From Candidatus Hydrogenedentota bacterium (GTDB lineage: Bacteria; Hydrogenedentota; Hydrogenedentia; Hydrogenedentales; JAGMZX01): a stretch of 59,090 bases of DNA. The notes under the pieces are model-generated. The model had not been told where the DNA came from. It saw only the letters and a list, made by a program, of their open reading frames with translations, and searched no databases. The first letter of the stretch is position 1; each line of letters starts with the position of its first letter. The stretch lies in NCBI GenBank assembly GCA_018005585.1, contig JAGMZX010000018.1, positions 1-59,090 of the forward strand, given 5' to 3'. Positions 1,431 to 39,731 of the stretch are shown here, piece by piece. The translations under genes and the position numbers were made by a program.

Positions 1431-1431
1431 A

Positions 1432-11899: not shown

Positions 11900-12116
11900 G
11901 CGTTCACCCGCGCGGGTACGCGCGGGCGGAATGCGGCCGTTGTTCGGGTCTTTGCCGCTGTCTCAATAGGAACCAGGGACGAACGTCCGGGAATCCGCAT
12001 TCAAGGCCCTCTGCCAGCACCTGCCTGTGGCGTCCCTGCTTCCCACGGTTTTCCGGGAAGATTGCCGGCGCGGAAGCGGCCCGTGCTACTATCGCGTCAC
12101 CCTGGGAGTTCCACTC

Positions 12117-19069: not shown

Positions 19070-19384
19070 CAGCTATCCCAAAATCCGTGGGACGACGGGA
19101 ATCGTATATTCGATTGGAGGATACCATTCAAAGACGCGGCTTGACTGTGCCCGCGCCCCTGCAAGAGGCAGGAATCGAGTTATGGCACAGTTGCCGGTTC
19201 GGCAACGGGGGCTCTCGCCGGCTGCCGGTATTTGGGCTGTTTTTCGTATCCGGCCAGCCTTGCGCCCGGCGGAATCTTGGGACGCAGATTTTCTGCTTGT
19301 CTTTTAGTGCGGATAAGTACTATAAGTAGCCAATTTTTGAGGCAATCCGGCTCTTGGGTTGGGCTGGTCCGCAGGAGGCGAACG

Positions 19385-22838: not shown

Positions 22839-22858
22839 TGTGCTCTCGCGCCTCGCCG

Positions 22859-24090: not shown

Positions 24091-25938
24091 GTGGGCGCGT
24101 GCGCGTGGGTGCTGTTCGCCTTCGTGGCGGTGACGGTGCGCGGTATCCGTTGGGAGGAGAATTACGAGTTCGCGCAGGTATTGCTGGGCGCGGTCTCGTA
24201 CCCGCCGGGGCACCCCTTGTACCAGCACGTTCATAATACGCCGAGCCTGCAAACATACCTGGCGGCGGCGCTGCTCTGGATCGATCCGGACCCGCGCCTG
24301 ACGTGCGGCGTGCGTAACGTGTTGTATGTCCTCGCCAAGACCCTGCCCGCCTTTCTCCTGGGCGCCGGGCTTACGGGGCGCGCCCGTTGGGGTCACGCGG
24401 CGGCCGTGCTGGCCCTGCTGGCGGGCAACGAATTCGCGACGACCTATCCGTCGCGGCCGTGGCCCATGTTCGCGGGCAACGGCGCCGTAGGAACGGGGGC
24501 CGCGCTGCTCGGTATCGCGTGCCTCTGCAACGGGTGGAACGCGGCCGCGTATGCCATCGCGGGGCTCATGCCCGCCCTGCACCTGGGCCAATGCGCGCCG
24601 CTTCTCGCCGTTACCGGCCTCCATGCCGCGCACACGGCGTGGCGTGGGCGGCGGGGCGATATGCGGCGCCCATGCGCCGGATTGCTCGCGGGGCTCTCGG
24701 TCACCTTGATTGCCTTTCTCGTCTTCTGGTATCTGCGCGTTCCCTGGCCGGAGTCCGGGCCTTATTATGACCCGATTGCGCCGGAAACGGTCTGGAAGGC
24801 GTTCCTGACGCACTATTCCGCGCACCGCGACCTCGTCTGGGACCGGCAGCAGGCCGTGTTGGGCTGGGCTGCGCTCTCCGGCGCGCTACTATTCTTCACC
24901 GGCATGCGTAAACGCTGCTCGCGGCCCGGCAGGACCTGGTTCGGCGTCTATATGATGATTACCGCGCTGCTGGTGTGGGGGGTCATGGGCGCACACGCGC
25001 TCCTGGGCGCGGAAACACCCGCCTGGCTCATCGCGTGGATGCCCTACCGTCTCGTGAACCACCTCATACCTTTGCTGACTGTGTTCGCCGTGTTGACGGC
25101 ATCGCGGACAGGCCCTGGAATCATGTGTCTGGCCGCGGCGCTGGCGTGCGCCGCCTTGCCGCACGGCGGCGAACGCGCTTTCTTGCTGTCAGCCGCTTCC
25201 GCGGCGGCGATTGTGCCGTATGCCACGTCCGCGCGGCCGCGTCTCGCCAAGGCTTGGTTTGGCGCGACAGGCGCGTTCTGGCTTTTCTCGGTCGCGGAGT
25301 TCAGGCTGGACGGCGCATTCTTCGCCGTGCCGCTGCTGGCGTGCGTAATGGTTCATCATTTCGCGGGGCGCCAGTGCCCCAATGTCCGCAGCGAGCAACA
25401 CGAGGGATTGCGATGGGCCCTTCTTTCTGTTGTGGGCCTGGCATGCCTCGCCGCATTGGGAGCCAATCTGTATGCCGAGTGGCGCTCGCGTGAGGATGTT
25501 GCGGAGCGGCTCACGCCGACGGACTTCGAACTGCGCACCCGCGCGTATCTTGCCGGGCACGCGGCGCCGGACAGCATGATCGCCGCGCCCGTGTACCAGT
25601 GGCGGCTGCAAGCGCGGCTTGGCTACCCCGTGATCGCGGATGCGGCCACGCACACCTGGCTGCCTTATCACAAGCGGCTCGGCCCGACGCTGTATAAGCT
25701 GTATCGCGACCTGTATGGCATCGACCTGCGCGCGTCGGGCGGAAAGACCACGCCGTTCGAGGTCTGGCGCGAGCATTGGGGGCGCCTCTCGGCGTCCCAG
25801 TGGCAGGCCCTTGGCAGAGAATATGGTTTCCGTTTCGTGTTCGCGCCGGGTTTTGTGCCGCTCGCATTGCCCGTAGCCGTCGAGGATGAATGGTACCGCT
25901 TGCACTATATTCCGGAATGGCGCCAGGAACCCCTGTGA
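24091..25938 (+). CDS. Polytopic membrane protein with a soluble C-terminal domain; possible GT-C-fold glycosyltransferase (start uncertain)
   Basis: Many hydrophobic segments and a 615-aa open frame. The frame is open back to 24022, and an in-frame ACG at 24049 lies 8 nt after GGGAGG. Family not securely identified. Confidence 0.6.
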   Translation: MGACAWVLFAFVAVTVRGIRWEENYEFAQVLLGAVSYPPGHPLYQHVHNTPSLQTYLAAALLWIDPDPRLTCGVRNVLYVLAKTLPAFLLGAGLTGRARWGHAAAVLALLAGNEFATTYPSRPWPMFAGNGAVGTGAALLGIACLCNGWNAAAYAIAGLMPALHLGQCAPLLAVTGLHAAHTAWRGRRGDMRRPCAGLLAGLSVTLIAFLVFWYLRVPWPESGPYYDPIAPETVWKAFLTHYSAHRDLVWDRQQAVLGWAALSGALLFFTGMRKRCSRPGRTWFGVYMMITALLVWGVMGAHALLGAETPAWLIAWMPYRLVNHLIPLLTVFAVLTASRTGPGIMCLAAALACAALPHGGERAFLLSAASAAAIVPYATSARPRLAKAWFGATGAFWLFSVAEFRLDGAFFAVPLLACVMVHHFAGRQCPNVRSEQHEGLRWALLSVVGLACLAALGANLYAEWRSREDVAERLTPTDFELRTRAYLAGHAAPDSMIAAPVYQWRLQARLGYPVIADAATHTWLPYHKRLGPTLYKLYRDLYGIDLRASGGKTTPFEVWREHWGRLSASQWQALGREYGFRFVFAPGFVPLALPVAVEDEWYRLHYIPEWRQEPL

Positions 25939-26139: not shown

Positions 26140-27948
26140 GTGGCGAGGACACCCGCTCCCAGCCGTTTCCCGGACCTGCGCCGGCACCTGGCGATCCTGG
26201 CCATCCTCATGGTGCTGGGATTGGCCGCATACGTCCGCGTGACGGGATTTGAATTCCTGCAATTCGACGACAACGAGATCGTTTGCGGGAATGAACACGT
26301 GACCGCGGGCCTGACGTGGCCGGGCATTGTGTGGGCGTGGATGCATCCCCATTTCGGCATCTGGATGCCGCTCACGTCGATGAGCCACATGCTGGATGCG
26401 CAGCTCTTCGGCGATTGGGCGGGCGGACACCACCTGACGAACCTGCTGTTGCATTTGGCGAATGTCGCGGTGCTGTATTTCGCGCTGTCCGCGCTGACGG
26501 GCAGCCCGTGGCGCAGCATGTGGGTCGCGGCGCTGTTCGCGGTGCACCCGTTTGGCGCGGGAGTGGCGGGCTGGGTGTCGAGCCGGAAAGAACTGACCTG
26601 GGCTCTGTGCTTCTTTCTCGCTTTGTGGGCCTACGCGCGGTATGCGCGGAAACCGGCGCCCGGACACTATGTGCTCGTATTGGTCTCGATGGCGCTCGGC
26701 GTGCTCTGCAAACCGATGATCATGACGCTGCCCTGCGTGTTGCTCCTGCTCGACTGGTGGCCGCTCGGACGCTGGCGGGGAGACACGATTGAACAGCTAT
26801 GGGCACGGGCCCTTGCGTTGATCCTGGAAAAAGCGCCCATGTTCTTGCTGAGCGTGGCGGCGGCGGCGGCAGCGGTCTGGGGGCAACGAGATGTGCATGC
26901 GGTCACGTTGTACGGCGATGTCTCTCTGGGCGTGAACGCGGCGAACGCGGCGGTCAGTTACGCGCGGTACCTCTTTCACGCGGTCTGGCCCGTCTGGCTC
27001 TCGGGCCACTATCCGCACTTGGGCGAAGCGCTCACACCGCTGCTGGCCGCGGGCGCGGCGCTGTTGCTGCTCGCGATAACGGCGGCGGTATTGGCGTTGT
27101 TCCGCCGCGCGCCCTGCCTGCTTGTGGGCTGGTTCTGGTTTCTCGGGACGCTTCTCCCGGTAATCGGCCTGGTCCAGTATGCCAACGCCTCAATGGCGGA
27201 CCGCTATGCCTATGTGCCGGTTATCGGGTTGTTTATCATGGCGGGTTGGGGCGTGCCGCACCTCCAGTTCAGACAACCGCCGGAGGCCGCGCTCCCCGGC
27301 AGGCATGGCGCACGCAGGAAAGACCGAAAGACGCGGCCCGCCCAGGACTCGCGCGGCATGCTGACAGGGGGCTTGGCTGTTGTGTCGATTCTGGCTCTTG
27401 CGCCCTTGGGCTGGTGGCAAGCGGGTTACTGGCACGACACGGAGCGCCTGTTCGCGCGCGCGCTGGAAGTCACGAAAGACAACGCGCTCGCCCACACGAA
27501 TCTGGGCATGGTGCGCCTCACGCAGCAGCGCTGCGAGGACGCCGTCGCGCATTATCGTGAAGCGGCGCGCATCGAGCCGCGCAATTTCCTCTGGCAATAC
27601 AATCTCGGCAGCGCACTTCTCGTCTGCGACCGCCCCGCGCAGGCGGTGCTCGCACTGCAGCAGGCCGTCAGGGGCAACCCGGAACATGCCCCGTCGCTCT
27701 CAAACCTGGGGACGGCCCTGCTCGACCTGGGGCGCCCGCGGGAGGCGCTCCGCTATCTCAAAAACGCTGTCCGCCTGGACCCTGCGCACGTGAACGCCCG
27801 AATCAACTACGCCCGCGCTTTGCGCAGGACGGGTAACCCGGCAGCGGCCGCGGCGGAACTGGAAGAAGCACTGCGGCTGGACCCGGCCAACACGGCTGCC
27901 CGTCAGGAACTGAATGTCTTGCGTGGCGCGGGCCAGCGACAAGAGTGA
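26140..27948 (+). CDS. TMTC-like GT-C membrane protein with C-terminal TPR repeats (putative protein O-glycosyltransferase)
   Basis: QFDDNEIV (DD loop), W.PLT..SH.LD, HLTNLLLH, LFAVHP, ADRYAYVP, W.DTERLF, followed by TPRs. Confidence 0.82.
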   Translation: MARTPAPSRFPDLRRHLAILAILMVLGLAAYVRVTGFEFLQFDDNEIVCGNEHVTAGLTWPGIVWAWMHPHFGIWMPLTSMSHMLDAQLFGDWAGGHHLTNLLLHLANVAVLYFALSALTGSPWRSMWVAALFAVHPFGAGVAGWVSSRKELTWALCFFLALWAYARYARKPAPGHYVLVLVSMALGVLCKPMIMTLPCVLLLLDWWPLGRWRGDTIEQLWARALALILEKAPMFLLSVAAAAAAVWGQRDVHAVTLYGDVSLGVNAANAAVSYARYLFHAVWPVWLSGHYPHLGEALTPLLAAGAALLLLAITAAVLALFRRAPCLLVGWFWFLGTLLPVIGLVQYANASMADRYAYVPVIGLFIMAGWGVPHLQFRQPPEAALPGRHGARRKDRKTRPAQDSRGMLTGGLAVVSILALAPLGWWQAGYWHDTERLFARALEVTKDNALAHTNLGMVRLTQQRCEDAVAHYREAARIEPRNFLWQYNLGSALLVCDRPAQAVLALQQAVRGNPEHAPSLSNLGTALLDLGRPREALRYLKNAVRLDPAHVNARINYARALRRTGNPAAAAAELEEALRLDPANTAARQELNVLRGAGQRQE

Positions 27949-27991
27949 TTCCCCGTTACGCTGTCTGCAAACACGCCAGAGCCCGGCGAAA

Positions 27992-28009
27992 TCGTGAAGG
28001 ATTGCACGA
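27992..28009. promoter_or_regulatory. Near-palindromic operator TCGTGAA-GGAT-TGCACGA (Rex-like or Crp/Fnr-like geometry)
   Basis: 6/7 arm symmetry, GTGA-N6-(T/G)CAC core, centred about 60 bp upstream of the predicted start site of the redox operon. Confidence 0.45.
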
Positions 28010-28025
28010 GTTTTCCATGACTTCC

Positions 28026-28054
28026 TTGAAATCAGAGAATCAAGTTGCTAGGCT
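28026..28054 (+). promoter_or_regulatory. Sigma-70-type promoter of the NuoE/NuoF/NuoG::NfnA/NfnB operon
   Basis: TTGAAA-N17-TAGGCT with an extended -10 TG. Confidence 0.55.
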
Positions 28055-28163
28055 CTGCGCTGAGCGTGACCAATGGTGGGAACGGTTCTCGCGGGATGCC
28101 TGACCGTTCCCTTGTTTTTGCGGCAGCTCGTGGCCTGAGCGCGCTGACGCAACGAGAGGGACC

Positions 28164-28658
28164 ATGGCAACGACAATGACTGTCGATACGGCGGCCGTCG
28201 CGGAGATTGTCGCCAAATACCCCGCCAACCGCAGCAGCCTGATACCCATCCTTCAAGACGTGCAGGAGCACTACGGGTATCTGCCCGAAGCGGCCATGGA
28301 CAACCTGGCGCAGCGCCTGAACCTGTCGCCCAATGAAGTGTACGGGGTAGCGACGTTCTATACCCAATTCCGTTTCCAGCCGCCCGGCGAACATACGATC
28401 TACGTATGCCAAGGCACGGCGTGCCACGTCCGCGGCGGGGCGGAGATTCTGCAGGAACTGGAGCACCGGCTGGGCATAGAAGCGGGCGAGACGACGCCGG
28501 ACGGGCGGTTCGACCTGCGCCGCGTGGCCTGCCTGGGCTGTTGCGCGCTGTCGCCGGTCGTCTCTGTGGACGGCCACGTGTTCGCGGAAGTGACGCGCGC
28601 GAAAGTGCCGTCGATCCTGGCCAAGTACCGGGGGAAGAAGGAGGTGGCGGAATCATGA
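28164..28658 (+). CDS. nuoE: NuoE/HydC-like [2Fe-2S] subunit of a soluble flavin-FeS complex (not complex I)
   Basis: LIPILQDVQEHYGYLP, GVATFY, CQGTACHVRG, ACLGCCALSP. Confidence 0.92.
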   Translation: MATTMTVDTAAVAEIVAKYPANRSSLIPILQDVQEHYGYLPEAAMDNLAQRLNLSPNEVYGVATFYTQFRFQPPGEHTIYVCQGTACHVRGGAEILQELEHRLGIEAGETTPDGRFDLRRVACLGCCALSPVVSVDGHVFAEVTRAKVPSILAKYRGKKEVAES

Positions 28659-30583
28659 GCGGTCTGCAGCACGCCTATGATCAGGCGCAAGCCGAGTGGC
28701 AGGCGCTGGAACGGACCGCACACCCCCTCTTTTTCGTGGGGGCGGCAACGTGCGGTGTGGCCGCGGGCGCGGGCGAGGTGATCGACGCCCTGACCAAGGC
28801 CATCGGCGAGCGCGGCCTCGACGCGGAGGTCATAAAGGTCGGCTGCCTCGGGCCGTGTTCTCTGGAACCGCTGGTAATCGTGCAGAAACCGGGCAAGCCG
28901 CGCGTGTGCTACGGCCCCATCGACGGCAAGAGCGCGTTGCGGCTGCTTGACGCCTATGTGCTGGGCGATGACCCGTGCGGCGACCTGGCCGTCGGCAAGA
29001 TGGACCCGGGCCAGGTGGACGGCATCGGCGATTTCGCGGACCACCCCATGCTGCGCGGACAGGTGCGCAACATCCTGCGCAATTGCGGCCAGATCGACCC
29101 GGAAAACGTGCGCCATTACCTGGCTCGTGACGGGTACCGCGGTCTTCTCAAGGCACTGGAAAGCGGGCGGGACCACTGTCTCGACATGGTGAAGCAGGCG
29201 GGCCTGCGCGGGCGCGGCGGCGCGGGTTTTCCCACGGCGTCGAAGTGGGAATTCTGCCGCAAAGCGCCCGGCACCGCGAAATACCTCATCTGCAACGCGG
29301 ATGAAGGCGACCCCGGCGCGTTCATGAACCGGTCCGTGCTCGAGGGTGACCCGCACGCGGTGCTCGAGGGCATGCTCATCGCCGGCTTCACCATCGGCGC
29401 GACGGCGGGCTATGTCTATTGTCGCGCGGAATACCCGCTGGCGTTGCACCGGCTCGACGTGGCCCTGTCTCAGATGCGCGAACTCGGCCTGCTCGGGCAG
29501 AACATTCTCGGGTCCGGCTTCTCGTTCGAGATTACGGTAAAGAAAGGCGCGGGCGCGTTCGTCTGCGGCGAAGAGACCGCGTTGATCGCGTCCATCGAGG
29601 GCCATCGCGGCATGCCGCGTCCGCGTCCGCCCTTCCCCGCCATCAGCGGCCTCTGGGGCAAGCCTACCGTTATCCAGAACGTGGAAACGCTGGCGAACCT
29701 GCCGCTTATTCTCCGTAACGGCCCGGACTGGTACGCGCAATTCGGCGCGGAATCGAGCCGCGGCACCAAGACCTTCGCGCTCGCGGGCAAGATCAACCGG
29801 ACCGGCCTGGTCGAAGTGCCGCTTGGCACACCGCTGCGCACGATCATTCAGGAGATCGGCGGCGGCATCCCGAACGGCAAGCAATTCAAGGCTGTGCAGA
29901 CCGGCGGGCCTTCCGGCGGCTGCATCCCCGCGGACAAGCTCGACCTCCCCGTCGATTACGAATCGTTGACGAGCGCCGGGACCATCATGGGGTCGGGCGG
30001 CATGATCGTGCTCGATGAAGACAGTTGCGTCGTCGACATCGCCCGGTTCTTCCTGTCGTTCACGCAAGAGGAATCGTGCGGCAAGTGCGGCCCGTGCCGC
30101 GTGGGCACCCGCGCCATGCTGGGCATCCTCAACAAGATCGCCGAGGGCCGCGGCACGCCGCGCGACCTCGATACGCTCGAGGAGATGGCGGTAACGGTGA
30201 AACAGGGGTCGCTTTGCGGCCTGGGCCAGACCGCGCCCAACCCGGTGCTGACCACCTTGCGCTATTTCCGCGCGGAATATGAGCAGCACATCAGGGAACA
30301 CGAGTGCCCCGCGTTCACGTGCAATAAACTGATTACGTTCCGCATCGATCAGGAGCGGTGCGAAGGCTGCGGCGCCTGTGCGCGCGGCTGCCCCGTGAAC
30401 GCCATCCAGGGCGAGAAGAACAAGCCGCACGCGATCGACCAGCGCGTGTGCATTCATTGCGGCGCCTGCGTGAGCCGGTGCCCCTCGACAAGCGCCGCCG
30501 TATACCGGGAGAGCGGCCGGCTGGTCCGATTCGAACCGCGGCGCGAGAAGAAAGCAGACGCGGCACGGGCGTCCCGCCCGTGA
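28655..30583 (+). CDS. nuoF: NuoF/HydB-like FMN/NAD(H) subunit with N-terminal [2Fe-2S] and C-terminal 2x[4Fe-4S] domains; bifurcating-type signatures
   Basis: ATCG..GCLGPC, GLRGRGGAGFP, NADEGDPGAFM, CGEETALI, RPPFP, GGPSGG, DSCVVD, ESCGKCGPCR, SLCGLG, HIREHECPAFTC, CEGCGACARGCP, CIHCGACVSRCP. Confidence 0.93.
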   Translation: MSGLQHAYDQAQAEWQALERTAHPLFFVGAATCGVAAGAGEVIDALTKAIGERGLDAEVIKVGCLGPCSLEPLVIVQKPGKPRVCYGPIDGKSALRLLDAYVLGDDPCGDLAVGKMDPGQVDGIGDFADHPMLRGQVRNILRNCGQIDPENVRHYLARDGYRGLLKALESGRDHCLDMVKQAGLRGRGGAGFPTASKWEFCRKAPGTAKYLICNADEGDPGAFMNRSVLEGDPHAVLEGMLIAGFTIGATAGYVYCRAEYPLALHRLDVALSQMRELGLLGQNILGSGFSFEITVKKGAGAFVCGEETALIASIEGHRGMPRPRPPFPAISGLWGKPTVIQNVETLANLPLILRNGPDWYAQFGAESSRGTKTFALAGKINRTGLVEVPLGTPLRTIIQEIGGGIPNGKQFKAVQTGGPSGGCIPADKLDLPVDYESLTSAGTIMGSGGMIVLDEDSCVVDIARFFLSFTQEESCGKCGPCRVGTRAMLGILNKIAEGRGTPRDLDTLEEMAVTVKQGSLCGLGQTAPNPVLTTLRYFRAEYEQHIREHECPAFTCNKLITFRIDQERCEGCGACARGCPVNAIQGEKNKPHAIDQRVCIHCGACVSRCPSTSAAVYRESGRLVRFEPRREKKADAARASRP

Positions 30584-30610
30584 TGCATAGGCAAGATGCC
30601 CGACGCGGCA
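30560..30610. repeat. Degenerate copy of the 1432-1498 REPIN family, overlapping the nuoF-like stop codon
   Basis: GCGGCACGGGCGTCCCGCCCGTG (arm 1; TGA at 30581-83), then CATAGGCAAGATGCCC (degenerate arm 2). Confidence 0.6.
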
Positions 30611-30636
30611 CGGGAAGCATAGGTGAGATAGACACT

Positions 30637-33147
30637 ATGAAGCTCTACATCAACCAGCGGGAAGTGGAAGGCCGGGAAGGCGAGACCATTCTCGAATGCG
30701 CGCTGCGCCATGGCATCCATATTCCCCATTTGTGCACGCACCCGAATCTGCCGCCGTTCGGCGCTTGCCGCCTCTGCGTGGTTCAGGTGGAGAAGATGCG
30801 CGGATTCCCGACGTCATGCACGACGCCCGTGCAAGAGGGCATGCGCGTCGAGACCGAAACGCCGGAATTGCTCAAGCTGCGGCGCAACATCCTCGCGCTG
30901 ATGATGATCGAGCACCCAAACGCCTGTCTGGTCTGCGGCAAACGGGAGCTGTGCGAGAAGTTCCGGCCCAAGGCGGAGAAGGTGGGCCGCACCACCGGTT
31001 GTCACACCTGCAACAACAAGGAAGTCTGCGAAGTCCGCGCGTTATCGGAAGACCTCGGCCTGACCGAGATTCCCGTGGCGCCGCTGTATCACATGCGGCC
31101 GCTCGACCGCTCGAACCCGTTCATCGATCGCGACCTGAACCTGTGCATCCTTTGCGGACGGTGCGTGCGCATCTGCGAACACCAGCAGGGGCAGCCTGTA
31201 ATCGCGTTTGTCAACCGCAGCGGCAAGACGCACATCGGCGAGGCGTTCGGGCGCAACCTCGAGGAAGCGGGCTGCACCTTCTGCGGCTCGTGCGTGGATG
31301 TGTGCCCCACGGGCACGCTTGCCGACCGCTACGCGAAATGGTACGGCCGCGCCGAAAGCGAGGTGGACAGCACCTGCATCTTCTGCGGCGCCGCGTGCGC
31401 GCTGCACCTGGGCTCAAACGACGGCCGGCTCGTGGCCGCGCGCGCGGTGAACATGGGCGTGCCGGTGTGTCTCATGGGCCGGTTTGCCCTGTCCGAATTC
31501 CTGAACGGGGAAGACCGGTTGAAAACGCCGCACGTGCGCGTCGGCGAGGTCCTGCGCGAAGTGAAATGGGACGACGCGTTGGCGTCCGTCGCGGAACAGC
31601 TTCGCCCGTACATCAATGACGGCTTCGCCCTTGTGTGCGACACGGGCACGCCCATCGAAGACCGGCACGTCTTCAAGCGTTTCACGAACGAAGTCATGAA
31701 ATCGCAGCGGTATTTCGAGATCACGCCGGACGCGCACGGCTTATCGCGCGCGGCGGTGCCGGAGGGCACGCGCGCGCTCGTGACGACCGGCGATTTCGTG
31801 GACGCCGCGCAGCTCGATGGCGTCGACGTGATCGTGGTCCTGGATTGCTACCCCACACCCGTCAGCGAGCGCGCCTGCGCCGTGCTGCCCGCCGCCGTGT
31901 TTGCCGAGACCGCCGGCACGGTCCTTGACGGAGAGGGCCGTCCGCGGCCATTACGCCAGGCGTGCGCGCCGCCGGGTCAGGCTTGGCCCGAATGGCGCAT
32001 CATCGCACAACTGGCCCGGACGCTCGGCGGCGCAGGGTTCGATTGGAACAAGGTGGGCGAGATCACGGCCCAACTGGGCCTGGACGATGCTGCGCTCCAC
32101 GCGGACCGCGCGGAAGCGCCCGCGCCCGCGCTGGACAAGTTGGCGGCGAGCTCGTTCTTCCGGGGGCATCGCATCGAGGACTACGTCGCGGGCCTCCGCG
32201 CGCTGAAAGGCGCGGAAGGCCGCCCGGCAGACCTGCGTCCGATTCGGGCTGAAGGCCGCTTCCTCATCGTTTCCAAGCGCGAAATTGTGCCCAACTCGCA
32301 CGAAATCGTCATCGAAGCACCCGAGATCGCGCGCAAGGCACAGCCGGGGCAGTTCATCATCGTCATGGTGGACGAACGGTCCGAGCGCGTGCCCTACACG
32401 TTGTGCGACTGGGACGCCGCGAAGGGGACCGTCACGCTCGTGGTCCAGGAAAAGGGCCAGTCGAGCCGGAAACTAATCCTGACGGAGGCGGGCGACCGGC
32501 TCGCGCACGTGGTGGGGCCGCTGGGTATTCCGCTCGAAATCAAACAGTACGGCGTGGTGGCGCTTGCGGGCGGCTGCTACGGCATCGGCGGCATTCTGCC
32601 GATCGCGAAGGCCATGAAAGCGGCGGGCAATCGCGTGATCGTCGTGACCGAAGCGCGCAGCCACTACATGAACTATTACGAGGAAAAACTGGCGGGCTCG
32701 GCCGACGAATTCGTCTTCACGACCATCGACGGGTCGTCGGGAGTGAAAGGGCACGCGGTCGATGACATCGGCAGGCGGCTGCGCGCGGGCGAGCAGCTCG
32801 ACTGTGTCATCGCCGTGGGATGCCCGTTCATGATGATGCTGACGAGCGAAGAAACAAGGCCGTTCGGCGTGAAGACGCTCGCGGCGCTGAACCCGATTAT
32901 GGTGGACGGCACGGGCATGTGCGGCGCGTGCCGGATCACCGTGGGCGACAAGATGAAATTCGCGTGCGTCGACGGACCGTTCTTCGACGCGCATCAGGTC
33001 GATTGGGACGAGGTGCGGGACCGCCGCGACGCCTACAGCTTCGCGGAAATCCAGTCGGTTGGACGCACCGAACCCGTCGTGGAACACCATGACCACGCGC
33101 ATCGCGGCTGCGGCTGCGGCATGCGCGCGGAAGCGGGGGTGAAGTGA
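30637..33147 (+). CDS. Fusion: NuoG/HydA/FdhA-like Fe-S module with a truncated non-catalytic molybdopterin-oxidoreductase fold, joined to an NfnA/SudB-like FAD/[2Fe-2S] domain (from about 32257)
   Basis: CTHP..GACRLC..SC, HPNACLVC..C, CILCGRCVRIC, CTFCGSCVDVCP, TCIFCGAAC..VCLMGRF; then EAPEIARKAQPGQFIIV..ERVPYTL, VVGPLG, DGTGMCGACR, FACVDGPFFD. No H-cluster or Mo-ligand motifs seen. Confidence 0.88.
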   Translation: MKLYINQREVEGREGETILECALRHGIHIPHLCTHPNLPPFGACRLCVVQVEKMRGFPTSCTTPVQEGMRVETETPELLKLRRNILALMMIEHPNACLVCGKRELCEKFRPKAEKVGRTTGCHTCNNKEVCEVRALSEDLGLTEIPVAPLYHMRPLDRSNPFIDRDLNLCILCGRCVRICEHQQGQPVIAFVNRSGKTHIGEAFGRNLEEAGCTFCGSCVDVCPTGTLADRYAKWYGRAESEVDSTCIFCGAACALHLGSNDGRLVAARAVNMGVPVCLMGRFALSEFLNGEDRLKTPHVRVGEVLREVKWDDALASVAEQLRPYINDGFALVCDTGTPIEDRHVFKRFTNEVMKSQRYFEITPDAHGLSRAAVPEGTRALVTTGDFVDAAQLDGVDVIVVLDCYPTPVSERACAVLPAAVFAETAGTVLDGEGRPRPLRQACAPPGQAWPEWRIIAQLARTLGGAGFDWNKVGEITAQLGLDDAALHADRAEAPAPALDKLAASSFFRGHRIEDYVAGLRALKGAEGRPADLRPIRAEGRFLIVSKREIVPNSHEIVIEAPEIARKAQPGQFIIVMVDERSERVPYTLCDWDAAKGTVTLVVQEKGQSSRKLILTEAGDRLAHVVGPLGIPLEIKQYGVVALAGGCYGIGGILPIAKAMKAAGNRVIVVTEARSHYMNYYEEKLAGSADEFVFTTIDGSSGVKGHAVDDIGRRLRAGEQLDCVIAVGCPFMMMLTSEETRPFGVKTLAALNPIMVDGTGMCGACRITVGDKMKFACVDGPFFDAHQVDWDEVRDRRDAYSFAEIQSVGRTEPVVEHHDHAHRGCGCGMRAEAGVK

Positions 33148-34619
33148 TGCCTGACACACCCAACGGCGAACCGGCCCAGAAACCGAAGGCGAAGCCGAAG
33201 ATTCCCCGGCAGCTGATGCCCGAGCAGGCGCCGGAAGACCGGGTCCGCAATTACAAAGAGGTGCCCTTTGGCTACTCGGAAGAGATAGCCGTGCTCGAAG
33301 CGAGCCGGTGCCTCAATTGCAGGAACCCGAAATGCGTGACGGGCTGCCCCGTTCACGTGGATATCCCCGGTTTCGTCTCGCTGGTGAAAGAGCGCAAGTT
33401 CATCGAGGCGGCGCAGAAGATCAAGGAACAGAACGCGCTGCCGGCCGTGTGCGGGCGCGTCTGCCCGCAGGAAGAGCAATGCGAGAGCAAGTGCATCCTC
33501 GCGATCAAGGGCGAGGCCGCGGCCATCGGGCGACTCGAACGGTTCGTGGCCGACTACGAGCGCAATTCCGGCGAGGTGCGTATCCCCGAACTGCCGGCCA
33601 AGACGGGCAAGCGCGTCGCGTGCATCGGCGCGGGGCCCGCGGGCCTCACCGTAGCGGGCGACCTGATCAAGCTGGGCCACGAGGTCACCGTCTTCGAGGC
33701 GTTGCAGGAAGCGGGCGGCGTGCTCACCTACGGCATTCCCGAATTCCGCCTGCCCAAGGAGATCGTGCGGGCGGAGGTGGACTATCTCAAGAAACTCGGC
33801 GTGCGCTTCGTCATGGACTACGTCGTCGGGCGCAACGCGACCATCCGCGAACTCATGGAAGACGAGGGCTACGACGCCGTTTTCGTCGGAACCGGCGCGG
33901 GCCTGCCTTCGTTCATGAACATCCCCGGCGAGAATCTCGTCGGCGTCTATTCGGCCAACGAATACCTGACGCGCGCCAACCTTATGAAGGCATACCTCTT
34001 CCCGAAATATGACACGCCGCCGATCCGCCGCGAACGCGTCGCCGTCGTAGGCGGCGGCAACGTGGCGATGGACTCCGCGCGCACGGCGCTGCGCCTCGGC
34101 GCGGTGGTCTACATCGTCTACCGGCGCGCCCGCGAGCAGATGCCGGCCCGCGCCGAGGAGGTCCATCACGCCGAGCAGGAAGGCGTCAAGATGATGCTGC
34201 TCAACAACCCGGTGCGCATCCTCGGCGACGAGCGCCACCGCGTAACCGGCATGGAATGCCTGCGCATGGAACTCGGCGAGCCCGACGAATCGGGCCGCCA
34301 CAGGCCCGTGCCCGTGAAAGGGTCCGAGTTTATCCTCGACGTGGATACCGTCATCATGGCCATCGGCAACAAGCCGAACCCGCTCGTGCCTCAGACGACG
34401 CCCGAACTCAAGGTGTCCAAGTGGGGCACGGTCGAGGTGGATGCCGGGACCATGGCCACATCCGTGCCGGGCGTGTACGCCGCGGGCGACATCGTCTCCG
34501 GCGCAGCCACCGTGATCAGCGCGATGGGCCAGGGCCGCACCGCCGCCGCGTCGATCCACCGGTATCTGATGGGCGAGCCCGCGCCTGCCGCGCAGGCCGG
34601 CCAGGCCGCCGCAAGTTGA
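33147..34619 (+). CDS. nfnB: NfnB/SudA/GltD-like FAD, 2x[4Fe-4S], NADP(H) subunit
   Basis: RCLNC..PKCVTGCP, CGRVCPQEEQCESKC, IGAGPAGL, YGIPEFRLPK, GGGNVAMD, VYRR, GDIVSGAATVISAMGQGR. TGATG overlap with the fusion gene. Confidence 0.88.
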   Translation: MPDTPNGEPAQKPKAKPKIPRQLMPEQAPEDRVRNYKEVPFGYSEEIAVLEASRCLNCRNPKCVTGCPVHVDIPGFVSLVKERKFIEAAQKIKEQNALPAVCGRVCPQEEQCESKCILAIKGEAAAIGRLERFVADYERNSGEVRIPELPAKTGKRVACIGAGPAGLTVAGDLIKLGHEVTVFEALQEAGGVLTYGIPEFRLPKEIVRAEVDYLKKLGVRFVMDYVVGRNATIRELMEDEGYDAVFVGTGAGLPSFMNIPGENLVGVYSANEYLTRANLMKAYLFPKYDTPPIRRERVAVVGGGNVAMDSARTALRLGAVVYIVYRRAREQMPARAEEVHHAEQEGVKMMLLNNPVRILGDERHRVTGMECLRMELGEPDESGRHRPVPVKGSEFILDVDTVIMAIGNKPNPLVPQTTPELKVSKWGTVEVDAGTMATSVPGVYAAGDIVSGAATVISAMGQGRTAAASIHRYLMGEPAPAAQAGQAAAS

Positions 34620-34652
34620 GCATAAGCGCGCCGGGCGGGGACTCAGCCCGGC

Positions 34653-35129
34653 TCACGCGCCCGCATTCATGCGCCAGAGCGCATAGTTCAGAATAGCGGC
34701 GAAACTCACCCAGCAGACATAGGGGATCAACAAGGCCCCAGACAGGGCGCGAACGCGCCAGAAGAGAATAACGGTCGCGAGGATGGCGGCGTCGAGCAAC
34801 AGGATCTCCGCGAAAGCCCAGCCCAACGCGTGCTGCCCGAAGAATATCCAGGACCACAGCGCGTTGAGCAGAAGCTGCATGAGATAGACGGCCAGCGGCG
34901 CGGCGACGGGCGCCTGTTGCCGTCGCAGCCACACCAGCCACGCCGCGACGGCCATGCCCAGGTACAGCAGCGACCACACCGGGCCGAAAACCCAGGCCGG
35001 TGGCGTGAATGCCGGCTTGTGAAGCGCGCGGTACCATTCGCCTGCGCCGTATTGGCTGCCGAACGCAGCCGCCCCCGCAACAAGCAATATGCTGACGATA
35101 AGAACGCCGGCCTTTTCCCAAGAGGACAT
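34653..35129 (-). CDS. tspO: TspO/MBR tryptophan-rich sensory protein
   Basis: WYRALHKPAFTPPAWVFGPVWSLLY, LNALWSWIFF, LIPYVCWVSFAAILN. Confidence 0.93.
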   Translation of the reverse strand: MSSWEKAGVLIVSILLVAGAAAFGSQYGAGEWYRALHKPAFTPPAWVFGPVWSLLYLGMAVAAWLVWLRRQQAPVAAPLAVYLMQLLLNALWSWIFFGQHALGWAFAEILLLDAAILATVILFWRVRALSGALLIPYVCWVSFAAILNYALWRMNAGA

Positions 35130-35131
35130 GG

Positions 35132-36526
35132 TCACGCCCGTTTCACGCGCGGGCCGTCCGCCGTGTCCTCGAGTATCCAGCCGAGGCTGCGCAACTGGTC
35201 GCGGACCGCGTCGGCTTTCGCGAAATCCTTGGCGCGGCGCGCGTCCTGACGCGCCTGAACCAGGTCCAGCACGTCCTGAGGAACGGCCGCTTCCGGCGCA
35301 TCGCCGAAAAGCCCCGTGACGCGGTCGAGCCGGTCCATGAGCGTAAGGGCCTCGCGTGCGCCCTCCGCGCCCGCCACGCCGTCGTCGACCAGCTTGTTGA
35401 CGTCGCGGATGAAATCGAATACCACGCCGAGCGCGCCCGAGATATTGAGGTCGTCGTCGAGCGCTTCCTGAAACGCCGCCTCGCAGGCCGCGCACTGCTG
35501 CGCCAGGCCGCCGCCGCCGCGCACCGTCTTCAACCGGTCGCGGAAATCGCGGATGCGCCGCAGCGATTCCCGGGCCGCGTCGACGGCCTCGAAACTGAAA
35601 TTGTTCGGCTGGCGGTAGTGCGTGGCCAGCAGCACCCACCGGATCGCCATCGGGTCGATGCCGCGTTCGAGCAGGTCGCGCAGCGTGAAGAAATTGCCCA
35701 GCGATTTCGACATCTTGCGGCCTTCAACCACCAGATGCGCGCAGTGCAGCCAGTATTTTACGAACGTCCGGCCCGTGCAGCATTCGGATTGGGCGATCTC
35801 GTTCTCGTGATGCGGGAAGATGTTATCCACGCCGCCACAATGGATGTCGAAACTCTCGCCGAGGTATTTGAGGCTCATGGCCGAACATTCGATATGCCAG
35901 CCCGGGCGGCCCTTGCCCAGTTCCGTCTCCCAAAACACGGCGCCATCGTCTTCGTCCCAGGCCTTCCACAACGCGAAATCGCGCGCGTCCGCCGCTTCAT
36001 ATTCGTCCGTATCGACGCGCCCGCTCGCACCCGCTCGCAACTGCTCCAGGTCCATGTGGCTCAACCGGCCATAACGCGGAAACGTCGAAAGCCGGAAGTA
36101 TATGCTCCCCTCGTGCTCGTACGTGTGCCCCTTCTCCCGCAGCGTCTTGATCATCGCGACCATCTCGGGCACATGGTCCGTGGCGGCAGGATAGACATCC
36201 GCCCGGCGGATGCCCAGCGTGTCCACGTCCTCGAAAAACGCCCTTGCATAGCGGTCCGTGATGGCCTTGAGCGGCTCGCCCGTTTCGCGGCACGCGCGGA
36301 TCAATTTGTCCTCCACGTCCGTCAGATTCATCACGTGCCGGACCTCATAACCCCGGTATTCCAGGTAGCGGCGCAGCAGATCCTCGAATACGTACGCGCG
36401 GAAATTGCCGATGTGCGCGAAGTTGTAGATCGTCGGGCCGCACGTGTACAGGCCGGCCTTGCCCGCCTCGACCGGCTCGAACGCCTCCTTCGCGCGGCTC
36501 ATCGTGTTGAAAAAACGCAGCGCCAT
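35132..36526 (-). CDS. cysS: Cysteine-tRNA ligase
   Basis: YTCGPTIY, HIGNFR, DFALWK, GRPGWHIECSAM, FPHHENEIAQ, KMSKSLGNF. Confidence 0.98.
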   Translation of the reverse strand: MALRFFNTMSRAKEAFEPVEAGKAGLYTCGPTIYNFAHIGNFRAYVFEDLLRRYLEYRGYEVRHVMNLTDVEDKLIRACRETGEPLKAITDRYARAFFEDVDTLGIRRADVYPAATDHVPEMVAMIKTLREKGHTYEHEGSIYFRLSTFPRYGRLSHMDLEQLRAGASGRVDTDEYEAADARDFALWKAWDEDDGAVFWETELGKGRPGWHIECSAMSLKYLGESFDIHCGGVDNIFPHHENEIAQSECCTGRTFVKYWLHCAHLVVEGRKMSKSLGNFFTLRDLLERGIDPMAIRWVLLATHYRQPNNFSFEAVDAARESLRRIRDFRDRLKTVRGGGGLAQQCAACEAAFQEALDDDLNISGALGVVFDFIRDVNKLVDDGVAGAEGAREALTLMDRLDRVTGLFGDAPEAAVPQDVLDLVQARQDARRAKDFAKADAVRDQLRSLGWILEDTADGPRVKRA

Positions 36527-37185: not shown

Positions 37186-38463
37186 TCACGCGGGCCGGAT
37201 TTTGCGTTTCTCCTTGTCGAAGACCACGCGGCGGCCGAGGACATACGCCAGGTCGCCGAGCAGGACTGCAATTCCGTGCCGGTAGCCGTATTCCATGTTC
37301 GCACGAGGCAGGCCGCCGTCGCGGATGCAGTCGAACCAGTTCGTCACGTGCGCTTGTCCGGGGTAGGGCGGATCGAAGTCGAGCAGCTTCTGCTCCGGGA
37401 TCGATTCGTCGACGCCTTCGCTCGAATATACGATATTGCCGAGGTCGTGCCCGAAGCGGCCGCGCACCATGCCCTTCTCGAACATGAGCACGGTGGACTC
37501 GCTGTCGAGGGTGCTGCCGAAATGGCTGACGAACTGCGCGTGGAAGCCTTCTTCGTATTCGAGCACGACGGTGACCTGGTCCGGCGCGTCGCAGCGTGGG
37601 TCGTTCCCGTGCGCGTAGCGGCCGCCGAAGGCGGTCGCGGCGACGGGGCAGCCACAGCCCGTAACGAAGTGGAACGTGTTGATGAAATGGCTCATCCAGC
37701 CGCCGATGGCCCCGCTTGAAAAGTCGTGGTAACCCATCCAGCACGCATGCTGGTGCGCGTCGAAGGGACGGCGCTTGCGGTTGTACAGGAACGCTTTCCA
37801 GTCCGTGTCTTCCGCGGTCTCCGGGCCTTGGTAGTGCACCCAGAACGGGACTTGAAGCGATTCGTTGGATTCCGCGCGGAACAGCCGGCCCAGCGTGCCC
37901 GCGGCGATGAATTCCTTGACCGCGCGCGCCGCGGGACACGACATGCCCTGCGTGCCATGCTGCACGGCCCGTTTCGAGTCCGTCACGACGTCGTAGCACT
38001 CGTTGAGTTCTTTGAGGTCCGATGCAACGGGCGCGATCGGCTTTTCGACATAGACGTGCTTGCCCGCCCGCACCGCGTCGATGGTCTGGCGGCAATGCTG
38101 GTGGTCAGGCGTGGCGATAATGACCGCGTCCACATCCGGGTCATCCAGCAGTTCGCGGTAATCGGCATACATCCTCGGTTTCAGGCCGTAGAGCCCCGCT
38201 GCTTCATCGGGATAGGTCTCCTGCCGCAGTCTCCAGATATCGGCGGCCGCCACGAGCGCCGTATTCGCGTTCGCGGGCTGCACCATGTTCTGCAGAATCC
38301 AGCGTCCGCGTCCCCCGCAGCCGATGAGGCCGAGGTTGATGCGGTCATTTGCGCCGATGGCGCGCGCGGCGCTGGCCGCTGTCATCTGCGGAAGCGCGAG
38401 GGCGGCGCCTGCGGCCGCCGATGCGCGGATGAAGCCGCGCCGGGAAATGGTGTCTTCTCTCAT
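37186..38463 (-). CDS. Tat-exported Gfo/Idh/MocA oxidoreductase
   Basis: SRRGFI Tat motif, IGCGGRG, DAVIIATPDHQH, HVYVEKP. Confidence 0.9.
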   Translation of the reverse strand: MREDTISRRGFIRASAAAGAALALPQMTAASAARAIGANDRINLGLIGCGGRGRWILQNMVQPANANTALVAAADIWRLRQETYPDEAAGLYGLKPRMYADYRELLDDPDVDAVIIATPDHQHCRQTIDAVRAGKHVYVEKPIAPVASDLKELNECYDVVTDSKRAVQHGTQGMSCPAARAVKEFIAAGTLGRLFRAESNESLQVPFWVHYQGPETAEDTDWKAFLYNRKRRPFDAHQHACWMGYHDFSSGAIGGWMSHFINTFHFVTGCGCPVAATAFGGRYAHGNDPRCDAPDQVTVVLEYEEGFHAQFVSHFGSTLDSESTVLMFEKGMVRGRFGHDLGNIVYSSEGVDESIPEQKLLDFDPPYPGQAHVTNWFDCIRDGGLPRANMEYGYRHGIAVLLGDLAYVLGRRVVFDKEKRKIRPA

Positions 38464-38540
38464 TATCCGAAATCCTTCCGGTGCAACAGCCGATTGGGAT
38501 GTCTTCTCTGGAACGAGCGGCGCCGACGCCGCCTCCACTA

Positions 38541-39731
38541 TCAGAGCGTAAACTGCGGAATCTTGAGCAGTTCTCCGTCTTTCTGGGCGGATTCGTGGGC
38601 GACGATGCCGCAGACGGTGAGTTTGAGCGCAGCGACGATATCGACCAGCGGCTTGCGTTCTTCTATGATCGAATGGATGAACTCGTTGCCGAGATAGCCG
38701 TGCGAGCCGCCGTGGCCGCCGGGGTCGACGCCGGGCGGCAGCGGCGGCTTGGCCAATTGGAGGTTCGAGATATCGGCGAGCCCGTCATAATTCATGCCGA
38801 TCATCGAGCCCTTCTGGCCGCGCACGCGGCCCGTTTCGCCGCCGTGGCCCGCGGTGTCCTTGCTCATGAGCATGCGCGACATGCCGCCTTCCGTCGTGCG
38901 CAGCAGGGCGATTTCCGTGCCGAAGACGTTGCCGTAGGCGTTCCCGCCCGATTGCAGCCATTCGAGTTCGCTCGGCATGCCCAGGCACGACACCTCGGTG
39001 AAACCGCCGCCGCTGACGCACGTGTGATAGGCCGTCGAGTGCGTCGGATACCACAGCGGCGGGCAGCCGATGCGCCAGCCTTTGTACGAGTCAATAGGCG
39101 TGGCGAGGTAGTGGTAATACTCGCCTTCGGAATAGACAATCGTGCCGAAGCCGCCCGCGTTGTAGATTTCGCGCATGGCGTAGCAATCGTCATGGTAGGC
39201 GCTCGTCTCGAACATCATGTAGTTGAGCCCCGACGCCTTGACCGCATCGAGCAGCTTGCCCGCGTCTTCGACCGAGCCCCAGACCGCGGGCACCGCCGTG
39301 GCCACATGCTTGCCGTGCGCGAGCACGTCGATGCAGTGCCGGCAATGGCTGGGCGCGTCCGTCGCGACGAATACCGCCTCGATATTCGGGTCTTTCACGA
39401 GTTCTTCGAGCGAGGGGTAGGTCTTGTCGCAGCGGCAGACTCGGGCCAGTTCCGCGCAGCGGTCGGGGAACAGGTCGCTGACCGCGGCCACCTCGACATT
39501 CGGGTGATCCTGGAAGCCGAAGGCCGCGCCGAACTTGCACACGCCGTAGCCGACGATGCCCATCCGTATCTTGCGGTCCGAGACGGGCGCCCACTCCTTG
39601 TTCTTCACCGTGTTGCTGGCGGTGTCGTCGAAGCCCTGGATGGTCTCATTATCCGCGGCGGCCAGGTTCAGCAGGCCGGCGCCCGCGGCGGCGCTTTGAA
39701 TGAAATGGCGGCGTGAGAAAACGTGCGACAT
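38541..39731 (-). CDS. Tat-exported Gfo/Idh/MocA oxidoreductase
   Basis: SRRHFI Tat motif, IVGYGVCKFG, VFVATDAPSH, YSEGEYYH, PLWYPTH, GGHGGSH. Confidence 0.9.
   Translation of the reverse strand: MSHVFSRRHFIQSAAAGAGLLNLAAADNETIQGFDDTASNTVKNKEWAPVSDRKIRMGIVGYGVCKFGAAFGFQDHPNVEVAAVSDLFPDRCAELARVCRCDKTYPSLEELVKDPNIEAVFVATDAPSHCRHCIDVLAHGKHVATAVPAVWGSVEDAGKLLDAVKASGLNYMMFETSAYHDDCYAMREIYNAGGFGTIVYSEGEYYHYLATPIDSYKGWRIGCPPLWYPTHSTAYHTCVSGGGFTEVSCLGMPSELEWLQSGGNAYGNVFGTEIALLRTTEGGMSRMLMSKDTAGHGGETGRVRGQKGSMIGMNYDGLADISNLQLAKPPLPPGVDPGGHGGSHGYLGNEFIHSIIEERKPLVDIVAALKLTVCGIVAHESAQKDGELLKIPQFTL

Follow-up and report, generated by a model that had tools for sequence, protein, structure and literature searches.

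A four-gene operon from Hydrogenedentota predicted to join an NfnSL module to a Bfu-type electron-bifurcating core

The DNA analysed here, referred to as the window, is a stretch of 59,090 nucleotides from a Candidatus Hydrogenedentota bacterium (contig JAGMZX010000018.1 of assembly GCA_018005585.1). Between positions 28164 and 34619 it carries four genes, E, F, G and B, all on the forward strand, whose products resemble subunits of two electron-bifurcating systems, namely the Bfu (HydABC-type) family with its subunits BfuC, BfuB and BfuA, and the Nfn enzymes with their small subunit NfnS (NfnA) and large subunit NfnL (NfnB). A first reading of the window from its sequence, the original prediction, had described four co-oriented genes with two overlaps and a gap of 53 bp, a layout borne out upon re-reading of the gene calls:

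28164-28658, forward strand: gene E, BfuC/NuoE/HydC-like, 164 amino acids (aa)
28655-30583, forward strand: gene F, BfuB/NuoF/HydB-like, 642 aa, with an ATGA overlap with E at 28655-28658
30637-33147, forward strand: gene G, BfuA::NfnS fusion, 836 aa, starting after a 53-bp gap behind F
33147-34619, forward strand: gene B, NfnL/NfnB, 490 aa, with a TGATG overlap with G at 33145-33149

In the broad sense, these four genes very probably encode one complex, NfnSL-Bfu, linked to nicotinamide adenine dinucleotide phosphate (NADP(H)), nicotinamide adenine dinucleotide (NAD(H)) and ferredoxin (Fd). In the more specific and tentative sense, which we consider plausible though short of an even chance, the complex would be a soluble Fe-S flavoprotein with two bifurcation sites placed in series through the low-potential branch of NfnL, which leads to BfuA.

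The product of E matches PF01257 over its full length (E = 1.6e-54), lies above the cut-off of the NuoE family NF005722 and possesses the predicted thioredoxin-like [2Fe-2S] site (C1; C82-x4-C87 and C123-x3-C127) by which a BfuC of the Bfu family is recognized; its gene precedes F in every related locus with sufficient flank. The product of F is composed, according to Pfam and NCBIfam, of Complex1_51K, SLBB and NADH_4Fe-4S domains and two Fer4 domains, preceded at the N-terminus by roughly 140 additional aa. When aligned with BfuB from bifurcating enzymes of known structure, four in all (Stn of S. ovata, NfnABC of C. saccharolyticus and of T. sibiricus, and NiFe-HydABCSL of A. mobile), it reaches 730-750 bits, with 750 bits for C. 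saccharolyticus NfnB (9bov_B), 747 for S. ovata StnB (8oh5_B) and 744 for A. mobile NiFe-HydB (7t2r_B), but only about 350-400 bits against the non-bifurcating NuoF/FdsB. Equally, the motifs ADEGDPGAFM at F215 and GAGAFVCGEE at F298 agree with the bifurcating and not with the non-bifurcating rows of Supplementary Fig. 10 of Schut 2022, in which an A/M/F signature distinguishes bifurcating from non-bifurcating homologues, and they are followed by RPPFP at F324 and GGPSG at F417. A B1 [4Fe-4S] cluster as in other Bfu enzymes is predicted from a match to PF10589 (E = 1.1e-33), and the remaining sites of the subunit can be located as follows:

28655-29074, forward strand: N-terminal thioredoxin-like domain with the B5 site (C33, C64, C68), aligning with the N-termini of Nfn-Bfu BfuB subunits with the same SCG...GC..C pattern
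30287-30322, forward strand: B2 site motif H545-x5-C551-x4-C556 (plus C458), as expected of the Bfu family
30341-30580, forward strand: C-terminal ferredoxin-like domain with 2 x [4Fe-4S] (B3, B4), C-x2-C-x2-C-x3-CP at F569 and F599, Fer4 in Pfam

The B2 residues C458, H545, C551 and C556 align with C437, H524, C529 and C534 of T. sibiricus NfnB, which bind Zn, and the content of the B5 site varies among the known members, S. ovata having a [2Fe-2S] cluster there and T. sibiricus Zn. The C-terminal B3/B4 domain, a further characteristic of the family, is the ferredoxin-facing end of Bfu cores (PMC12018979). All the HydB marks to which attention had originally been drawn (ADEGDPGAFM, RPPFP, GGPSG, C..H-x5-C-x4-C and the C-terminus with 2x[4Fe-4S]) are present in F. 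Judged from sequence, BfuC and BfuB would build a standard bifurcating core with a flavin mononucleotide (FMN)/NADH site, the B1 cluster, the B2 and B5 sites and a ferredoxin-facing B3/B4 domain.

The third gene, G, encodes a protein that starts as a BfuA subunit, with Fer2_4, NADH-G_4Fe-4S_3 and Fer4_Nqo3 domains, a weak Molybdop_Fe4S4 match and a molybdopterin remnant, and continues into an NfnS domain with a binding site for flavin adenine dinucleotide (FAD). Its parts, with structural confidence given as the AlphaFold2 predicted local distance difference test (pLDDT), are:

30637-30876, forward strand: A1 [2Fe-2S] domain (C33, C44, C47, C61), PF13510, E = 2.6e-21
30913-31029, forward strand: tandem A2 motifs, copy 1 H93-x3-C97-x2-C100-x5-C106 and copy 2 C122-x2-C125-x5-C131 with no His
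31144-31305, forward strand: A3 and A4 [4Fe-4S] (C170/173/176/180; C213/216/219/223), PF22117 Fer4_Nqo3
31375-31470, forward strand: A5 [4Fe-4S] (C247, C250, C254, C278), weak PF04879 match
31483-32136, forward strand: stump of a molybdopterin-oxidoreductase domain, about 220 aa, a single alpha/beta domain lacking the cofactor-binding parts
32137-32259, forward strand: linker between wire and NfnS, poorly conserved (conservation 0.34-0.40), pLDDT <50 at residues 525-537
32260-33066, forward strand: NfnS/NfnA-like domain with FAD-binding barrel, NAD-type Rossmann fold and Asp-Cys3 [2Fe-2S] site (D757, C762, C765, C777)
33067-33144, forward strand: His/Cys-rich C-terminal tail HHDHAHRGCGCG, residues 811-836, past the end of canonical NfnS

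Every ligand of A1-A5 is 100% conserved across 121 sequences, and so are all six cysteines of the two A2 copies. Copy 2 (G residues 118-131, window positions 30988-31029) is an extra three-cysteine motif, invariant in these 121 sequences, which aligns with the A2 motif of HydA/HoxU, and copy 1 aligns with that of FdsA; none of the solved NuoG/HydA/FdsA homologues has both copies in one protein. The duplication, situated between the A1 domain and A2, occupies the place where Stn/NfnABC bear their inserted GltD domain, and copy 2 could hold an additional cluster or metal site. Towards the end of the wire, PF00384 matches G only at positions 283-352 (the last ~70), PF01568 (Molydop_binding) is absent, and AlphaFold2 assigns a pLDDT >90 to residues 240-520. 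The H-cluster motifs TSCCP, MPCxxK and ExMxCxxGC occur in none of the proteins E, F, G and B. Neither the H-cluster of the [FeFe]-hydrogenase HydABC nor the molybdenum/tungsten bis-pyranopterin guanine dinucleotide site with its Cys/Sec ligand that defines Fdh-Bfu is recognizable, and the absence of H-cluster motifs and PF01568, together with the mere stump of PF00384, upholds the original description of an operon with no hydrogenase or Fdh active site. On the evidence of its motifs, the BfuA part of G appears as a pure Fe-S wire, consisting of A1-A5 and one extra three-cysteine site and devoid of a catalytic site. In a set of 1.84 billion proteins, no more than 11 representatives (E < 1e-30) show a compact BfuA with such a stump.

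A fusion of this kind might arise from an assembly or frameshift error, an origin which can, however, be ruled out with near certainty. The junction region 31800-32700 is unbroken, with zero indels, within single contigs from three separate wastewater/sludge studies, which answers the question of contiguity raised in the original prediction, and AlphaFold2 folds both halves of G well. Equally, a homologue search of G retrieved 2167 matches among 5.8 billion proteins; the best 120 of these are clusters at 56-95% identity, of which 116 have the same length (812-866 aa) and domain list and four are shorter than 800 aa, with Hydrogenedentes, Planctomycetota and Dehalococcoidia among the source names. 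In a few relatives (L027 3254-5729, L028 6001-8480, L029 6001-8426 and L033 5546-8049) the wire ends after about 535-550 aa, its stop codon falling within the linker region, and NfnS is the next gene, which still bears the family motifs GCYG and VGCPFMMM as well as a His-rich tail. A library clustered at 50% identity contains both fused (838-843 aa) and split forms (508-579 aa). The worry that the two halves might be separate in all relatives has not materialized, since they are fused in most and split but adjacent in few. Since wire and NfnS form one protein in some lineages and are encoded by neighbouring genes in others, there is good reason to believe that they function together.

The NfnS domain itself is readily recognized. 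Residues 543-817 of G match NF004862, the NfnA/NfnS family, with E = 2.7e-100 and 335 bits against a cut-off of 220, and the domain scores 268 bits against P. furiosus NfnI-S (5jca_S; 47% identity, template modelling score 0.85) and 208 bits against T. maritima NfnA. It has the ferredoxin-NADP+ reductase-like FAD/NAD fold with an Asp-Cys3 [2Fe-2S] site that defines the small subunit, and the ligands D757, C762, C765 and C777 are, like the FAD motif, invariant in >115 sequences. Compared with 119 stand-alone NfnS and the T. maritima and P. furiosus proteins, the domain, whether fused or split, shows 27 family-specific substitutions at otherwise conserved positions, which include GGGVG -> GGCYG, G672E, P729C and AVGP..MMK -> VGCPFMMM as well as the loss of the basic residues R577, R600, K608 and K734. 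All members of the fusion family have GGCYG and VGCPFMMM in place of the canonical NAD-binding motifs GGGVG and AVGP..MMK. Since the nucleotide-binding domain overall is conserved as strongly as the FAD domain, these changes are read as the marks of a site that has been retuned rather than lost. The tail HHDHAHRGCGCG is without counterpart in stand-alone NfnS, with C825 conserved to 86-88% and equally His-rich ends in the split relatives, and may bind metal.

These substitutions also speak for another wiring, in which the S-FAD/[2Fe-2S] branch exchanges electrons with the BfuA wire, the distal cluster of NfnL serves free ferredoxin and BfuBC replaces NADH as the partner of the S branch. The net reaction would be 4 NADPH + NAD+ + 6 Fd(ox) = 4 NADP+ + NADH + 6 Fd(red), that is 0.25 NADH and 1.5 Fd per NADPH, and in vivo the enzyme would mainly work in reverse, reducing NADP+ with a strong driving force and ferredoxin as the dominant donor, useful with mildly reduced ferredoxin at an equilibrium near -413 mV. 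Such a junction would be in line with the tether of BfuA joining the N-terminal, FAD-binding end of NfnS, with the position of A5 and the molybdopterin stump, fully conserved in the place of the Fdh cofactor and directly before the linker, and with changes that alter both nucleotide motifs (GGGVG to GGCYG, VGP to GCP, G672E) and remove four basic residues, the Fe-S domain of NfnL being unchanged. We nevertheless regard a junction at NfnS as unlikely. Electrons arriving one at a time from the wire would make S-FAD and the NAD-type domain dispensable, yet this domain is conserved across phyla, and the reaction offers little beyond that of a plain ferredoxin:NADP+ reductase. Moreover, E672 is located at the end of beta-2, where a glutamate is presumably the residue of an NAD-specific site, as we assume from the general features of Rossmann folds, and this counts against a junction at NfnS.

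The fourth gene, B, encodes a member of TIGR01316 (NfnB/NfnL family; 617 bits, cut-off 472), which scores 553 bits against T. maritima NfnB (4ylf_B) and 529 against P. furiosus NfnL. The Cys motifs at B55 and B102, predicted to ligate two [4Fe-4S] clusters, YGIPEFRLP at B195 with the arginine expected to face N5 of FAD, and YRR at B325 of the NADPH site are all in place, the latter two having been noted already in the original prediction. E131 is the equivalent of E126, the glutamate ligand of the proximal cluster in P. furiosus NfnL, where mutation of this ligand uncouples the two branches. Relative to the T. maritima and P. furiosus proteins, 15 positions carry family-specific changes (30 members), none of them in the Fe-S domain (residues 23-137), and B can be seen as canonical and, by all appearances, nearly orthologous to true NfnL. 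The anatomy as first proposed held in every detail that was checked and is amended in that the remodelled part is the NfnS domain and not NfnL, and in that the extra three-cysteine motif is added. As a separate observation, residues 1-23 of NfnL (33147-33215) form a Lys/Pro-rich N-terminal extension (KPKAKPKIPRQ) ahead of the canonical start, of which the PRQxMPEQ portion is kept in the family and which seems absent from T. maritima and P. furiosus NfnL, as far as the partial sequences compared extend.

It is at NfnL that a wiring after the fashion of Stn has to be considered, in which the FAD of NfnL is non-bifurcating, both electrons of NADPH pass via the [4Fe-4S] clusters of NfnL to BfuA, BfuBC provides the sole bifurcation site and NfnS is a scaffold or minor entry point. 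The net reaction would be that of an ordinary Nfn, 2 NADPH + NAD+ + 2 Fd(ox) = 2 NADP+ + NADH + 2 Fd(red), with 0.5 NADH and 1 Fd per NADPH. F is indeed most similar to the BfuBs of Nfn-Bfu enzymes, the homologous GltD domain in Stn has lost bifurcation despite a near-identical sequence of the FAD site, and BfuA-side modules have been argued to merely feed electrons to the core (Schut 2022). However, B resembles true NfnL (553 bits) far more closely than it does the Stn/NfnABC GltD domains (only 284-349 bits), the glutamate ligand, the residue needed for coupling in P. furiosus, is kept where Stn has Lys at that cluster, and the invariance of the [2Fe-2S] ligands and FAD motif of NfnS is unexpected for a mere scaffold, all of which makes the Stn-like arrangement distinctly unlikely.

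The order E-F-G::NfnS-NfnL was followed through 36 loci of species-representative genomes and is intact in each whose contig extends far enough. The hosts belong to Phycisphaerales, Sedimentisphaerales and Pirellulales (Planctomycetota), Hydrogenedentota, Anaerolineales (Chloroflexota), Verrucomicrobiota, Aegiribacteria and Sumerlaeota, and all genome hits are metagenome-assembled genomes (MAGs), from a scan by exact peptide patterns which may miss isolates. The closest locus (L031; 83-90% protein identity) derives from a Hydrogenedentota MAG. Flanking genes vary between loci of different phyla, with no other redox gene accompanying the four, and because the flanks differ from locus to locus, the four genes represent a conserved unit. 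This bears directly on whether two unlinked enzymes might have been brought together, an ordinary Nfn on the one side and, on the other, a BfuABC-like part with a hydrogenase or Fdh subunit as partner encoded elsewhere, the fusion only co-localising the two. In favour of this are a linker of considerable length, low conservation and predicted disorder, the frequent presence of several Bfu hydrogenases in Hydrogenedentota genomes, and the possibility of partners encoded elsewhere, noted by Schut 2022. Two unlinked enzymes are nevertheless very improbable, as the four-gene unit is the sole thing conserved between the loci of different phyla, no other redox gene travels with it and the compact BfuA with stump and duplicated A2 occurs essentially only in this context. 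Equally, the family-specific changes of NfnS are found whether it is fused or split, which argues for co-adaptation.

Not all of these operons have the same BfuB. In about 40% of them it is without the ferredoxin-like B3/B4 domain and runs in frame into a second GltD/DPD_II plus FAD/NAD(P) domain, so that the protein reaches about 1040-1045 aa (L001 2782-5928; L003, L007-L009, L011-L013, L018, L022, L032; L037 3849-6968). This GltD domain is 35-40% identical to NfnL of the window, and the variant adjoins both the BfuA::NfnS fusion and NfnL. At the marker positions of Schut 2022, the variant of L018 (2744-5980) is of the non-bifurcating type, with SEGDPGSFMNRS and GAGAYVCGEE, and that of L001 keeps the bifurcating-type residues.

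We infer the wiring and stoichiometry of the complex from homology to the systems from which its parts are known. Because BfuA has no substrate site and NfnSL is its only conserved partner, NfnSL would be the third-substrate module, with the electrons of BfuA coming from or going to it and NADP(H) as the third substrate. The marks of a bifurcating L-FAD appear to be kept (Glu-ligated proximal cluster, arginine of EFRLP, NfnS [2Fe-2S] branch), as do the FAD and the nucleotide fold of NfnS, and, as NfnSL looks complete, the distal [4Fe-4S] cluster of NfnL would be the only free port. Ordinarily serving ferredoxin, this cluster would here dock on the BfuA wire, probably near the duplicated A2 motif with the extra three-cysteine site as the likely bridge. 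NADPH would reduce L-FAD, the high-potential electron would pass through the [2Fe-2S] cluster and S-FAD to NAD+, and the low-potential electron would travel along the wire in BfuA and reach BfuBC, where at the FMN/Fe-S site electrons would be split again between NAD+ and ferredoxin. The net reaction, reversible in principle, would be 4 NADPH + 3 NAD+ + 2 Fd(ox) = 4 NADP+ + 3 NADH + 2 Fd(red), or 0.75 NADH and 0.5 Fd per NADPH. With the physiological potentials given by Schut 2022 (NADPH -380 mV, NADH -280 mV), the low-potential couple is calculated to equilibrate at ~ -680 mV, and the oxidation of 4 NADPH would release about 35 kJ in the forward direction at an Fd potential of -500 mV. In reverse, NADPH could be gained at half the ferredoxin cost of an ordinary Nfn, only if the NADH pool is strongly reduced. 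That this amounts to a natural two-stage cascade built from pyridine-nucleotide and ferredoxin sites only, in which the low-potential output of NfnSL is bifurcated again at the Bfu FMN/Fe-S site, is possible but somewhat doubtful; within such a cascade, NADPH alone, with NAD+ as sink, could bring an acceptor down to about -680 mV, a potential much lower than that of ordinary ferredoxin. The three wirings predict clearly different NADH:NADPH:Fd ratios.

Several observations weigh against two sites in series. NfnS bears most of the family-specific changes (27 versus 15 in NfnL), several of them in nucleotide-binding motifs, which fits a junction on the side of S-FAD as well, and the stand-alone NfnS set behind the count is taxonomically narrow (relatives from Thermotogota, Enterococcus and Synergistota, and P. 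furiosus). At the usual in vivo potentials, a reaction in series would be strongly exergonic in one direction only, that of NADPH oxidation, and no acceptor needing about -680 mV is encoded nearby. Finally, the production of a super-reducing ferredoxin as purpose is hard to reconcile with the replacement of the B3/B4 domain by a GltD/FAD domain in about 40% of the related operons.

A single exact metatranscriptome contig of 195 nt (32430-32624) is the only trace of transcription, too thin for an operon transcript, and a promoter/terminator scan over 27800-35000 gave nothing exceeding shuffled expectation. The Rex-like palindrome TCGTGAAGGATTGCACGA at 27992-28009, ~155 nt upstream of the operon, is the sole match of the window with <=3 mismatches to the Rex operator consensus TTGTGAA-N4-TTCACAA; as no such site lies upstream of any of 24 related operons, it is probably a chance match.

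Downstream, one gene converges on the operon end:

34653-35150, reverse strand: TspO/MBR membrane protein (PF03073, E = 5.8e-44)

The long open reading frame (ORF) listed for it, 34653-35639, probably has its true start downstream of its first start codon. The neighbours of the operon (GH2, GH116, sulfatase, aminotransferases, cysS, TspO, Gfo/Idh/MocA, RtcB, yidC, mnmE) give no functional hint to it. Those at 12027-14063, 21351-22922, 41988-44591 and 37186-39731, a glycoside hydrolase family 2 (GH2)-like hydrolase, a sulfatase, a GH116 beta-glucosidase and two Gfo/Idh/MocA oxidoreductases, fit a polysaccharide-degrading heterotroph, and DNA of the window recurs in metagenomes from wastewater, sludge and anaerobic digesters. 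Farther upstream, an unusual pairing is seen at 19232-21319 (forward strand), which encodes a 695-aa protein with an S-adenosylmethionine-dependent methyltransferase domain (residues 126-245) and a D-Ala-D-Ala-ligase-type ATP-grasp C-terminus (residues 495-679). Three long ORFs at 1131-3572, 4658-6364 and 24091-25938 (813, 568 and 615 aa) have a coding-type GC content at third codon positions and no Pfam match at E <= 1e-5, the product of the last resembling a polytopic membrane protein.

Nfn and Bfu enzymes are usually treated as unrelated solutions, and the literature stresses that organisms use one or the other; NfnSL and NfnABC have been handled as unrelated alternatives (Xiao 2025). Twelve Bfu activities have been listed, with Nfn-Bfu consisting of subunits ABC only and having a homologue of the NfnAB large subunit as one of its domains (Schut 2022), and Stn has been described without an NfnA homologue and Nfn without a HydBC homologue (Kumar 2023). 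The remark in the original prediction that Stn and NfnABC possess no NfnA-type subunit is thereby confirmed in print, by Kumar 2023 for Stn and by the ABC-only listing of Schut 2022. Equally, the survey of Bfu enzymes in Hydrogenedentota has been confined to hydrogenases. No chain in the PDB contains both the wire and the NfnS half, by sequence or fold search, the halves being recovered separately, and no description of a Bfu enzyme with an NfnS subunit was found in the open-access literature, subscription-only papers lying outside this scope; no match to an enzyme already characterised, by solved structure or by description in that literature, has thus emerged. Within that limit, the architecture is undescribed and constitutes an undescribed member of the Bfu (HydABC-type) family. 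As the sequence features of the Bfu family are present and the definitions of both Stn/NfnABC and free NfnSL do not apply, it is filed as a Bfu variant.

A conserved complex joining both solutions would be a natural test bed for the chaining of bifurcation modules, for the question whether a bifurcating FAD remains so once its ferredoxin port is hard-wired, and for the depth below ferredoxin potential that can be reached without a metal active site. It would add a node between NADPH, NADH and ferredoxin to the metabolism of abundant, uncultured fermenters of digesters, sediments and wastewater (Hydrogenedentota, Phycisphaerae/Sedimentisphaerales, Anaerolineales), for which present annotation pipelines give the fusion no name beyond 'sulfide/dihydroorotate dehydrogenase-like FAD/NAD-binding protein'.

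Among the known systems, the Nfn-Bfu enzymes (StnABC of S. ovata, 8OH5; NfnABC of C. saccharolyticus, 9BOV, and T. sibiricus, 9N5U) share with the operon a BfuBC core about 65-70% identical by eye (730-750 bits), a BfuA wire A1-A5 with a cofactor-less Fdh-like remnant, and a GltD-type FAD/NADPH module with two [4Fe-4S] clusters that supplies NADP(H) as third substrate, as would also be the case here. In these three-subunit enzymes, however, the GltD domain is located inside BfuA, its FAD is non-bifurcating, the special cluster is Lys-ligated and there is no NfnA/NfnS subunit, whereas here BfuA is without GltD, NfnL is a separate canonical protein with a Glu ligand, a full NfnS resides on the C-terminus of BfuA and the A2 motif is duplicated. 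With NfnAB/NfnSL (T. maritima, 4YLF; P. furiosus NfnI, 5JCA) are shared NfnL at 553/529 bits with its cluster ligands, EFRLP arginine and YRR, and NfnS, 47% identical to its P. furiosus counterpart, with the Asp-Cys3 [2Fe-2S] site and FAD motif. In canonical Nfn the two subunits form a heterodimer on their own or are fused S-L, and there is no HydBC-type partner, whereas here NfnS is joined to the BfuA wire in one operon with BfuBC; none of the four Nfn architectures (patterns A-D) of Liang 2019 has a NuoG-like part.

More distantly, the N-terminal 326 residues of G align with FdsA (210 bits) of FdsABG (R. capsulatus 6TG9), and the NuoG/Fdh fold is shared with this enzyme and NuoEFG, in which the F subunit lacks the bifurcating marks and a Mo site or membership in complex I is found in place of the stump seen here. 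The subtype I [FeFe]-Bfu hydrogenases of Hydrogenedentota likewise combine an 'FAD' centre with an 'FMN-FeS' centre in one Bfu enzyme, their BfuB having a DPD_II plus FAD/NAD(P) domain (PMC11406978) of the same BfuB::GltD type as in about 40% of the related operons; they differ by a BfuA with H-cluster and by the absence of NfnS and NfnL, and BfuB of the window retains the ordinary ferredoxin-like domain. Chained modules find their nearest precedent in the class II benzoyl-CoA reductase Bam(BC)2DEFGHI (BCRII; Bam-Bfu), which likewise unites BfuABC-type subunits with a second, unrelated flavin-based bifurcation module, the two acting in sequence in one complex. There, the second module is of the HdrA type and a tungsten site reduces benzoyl-CoA, whereas in the complex proposed here it would be NfnSL, with only pyridine nucleotides and ferredoxin as substrates.

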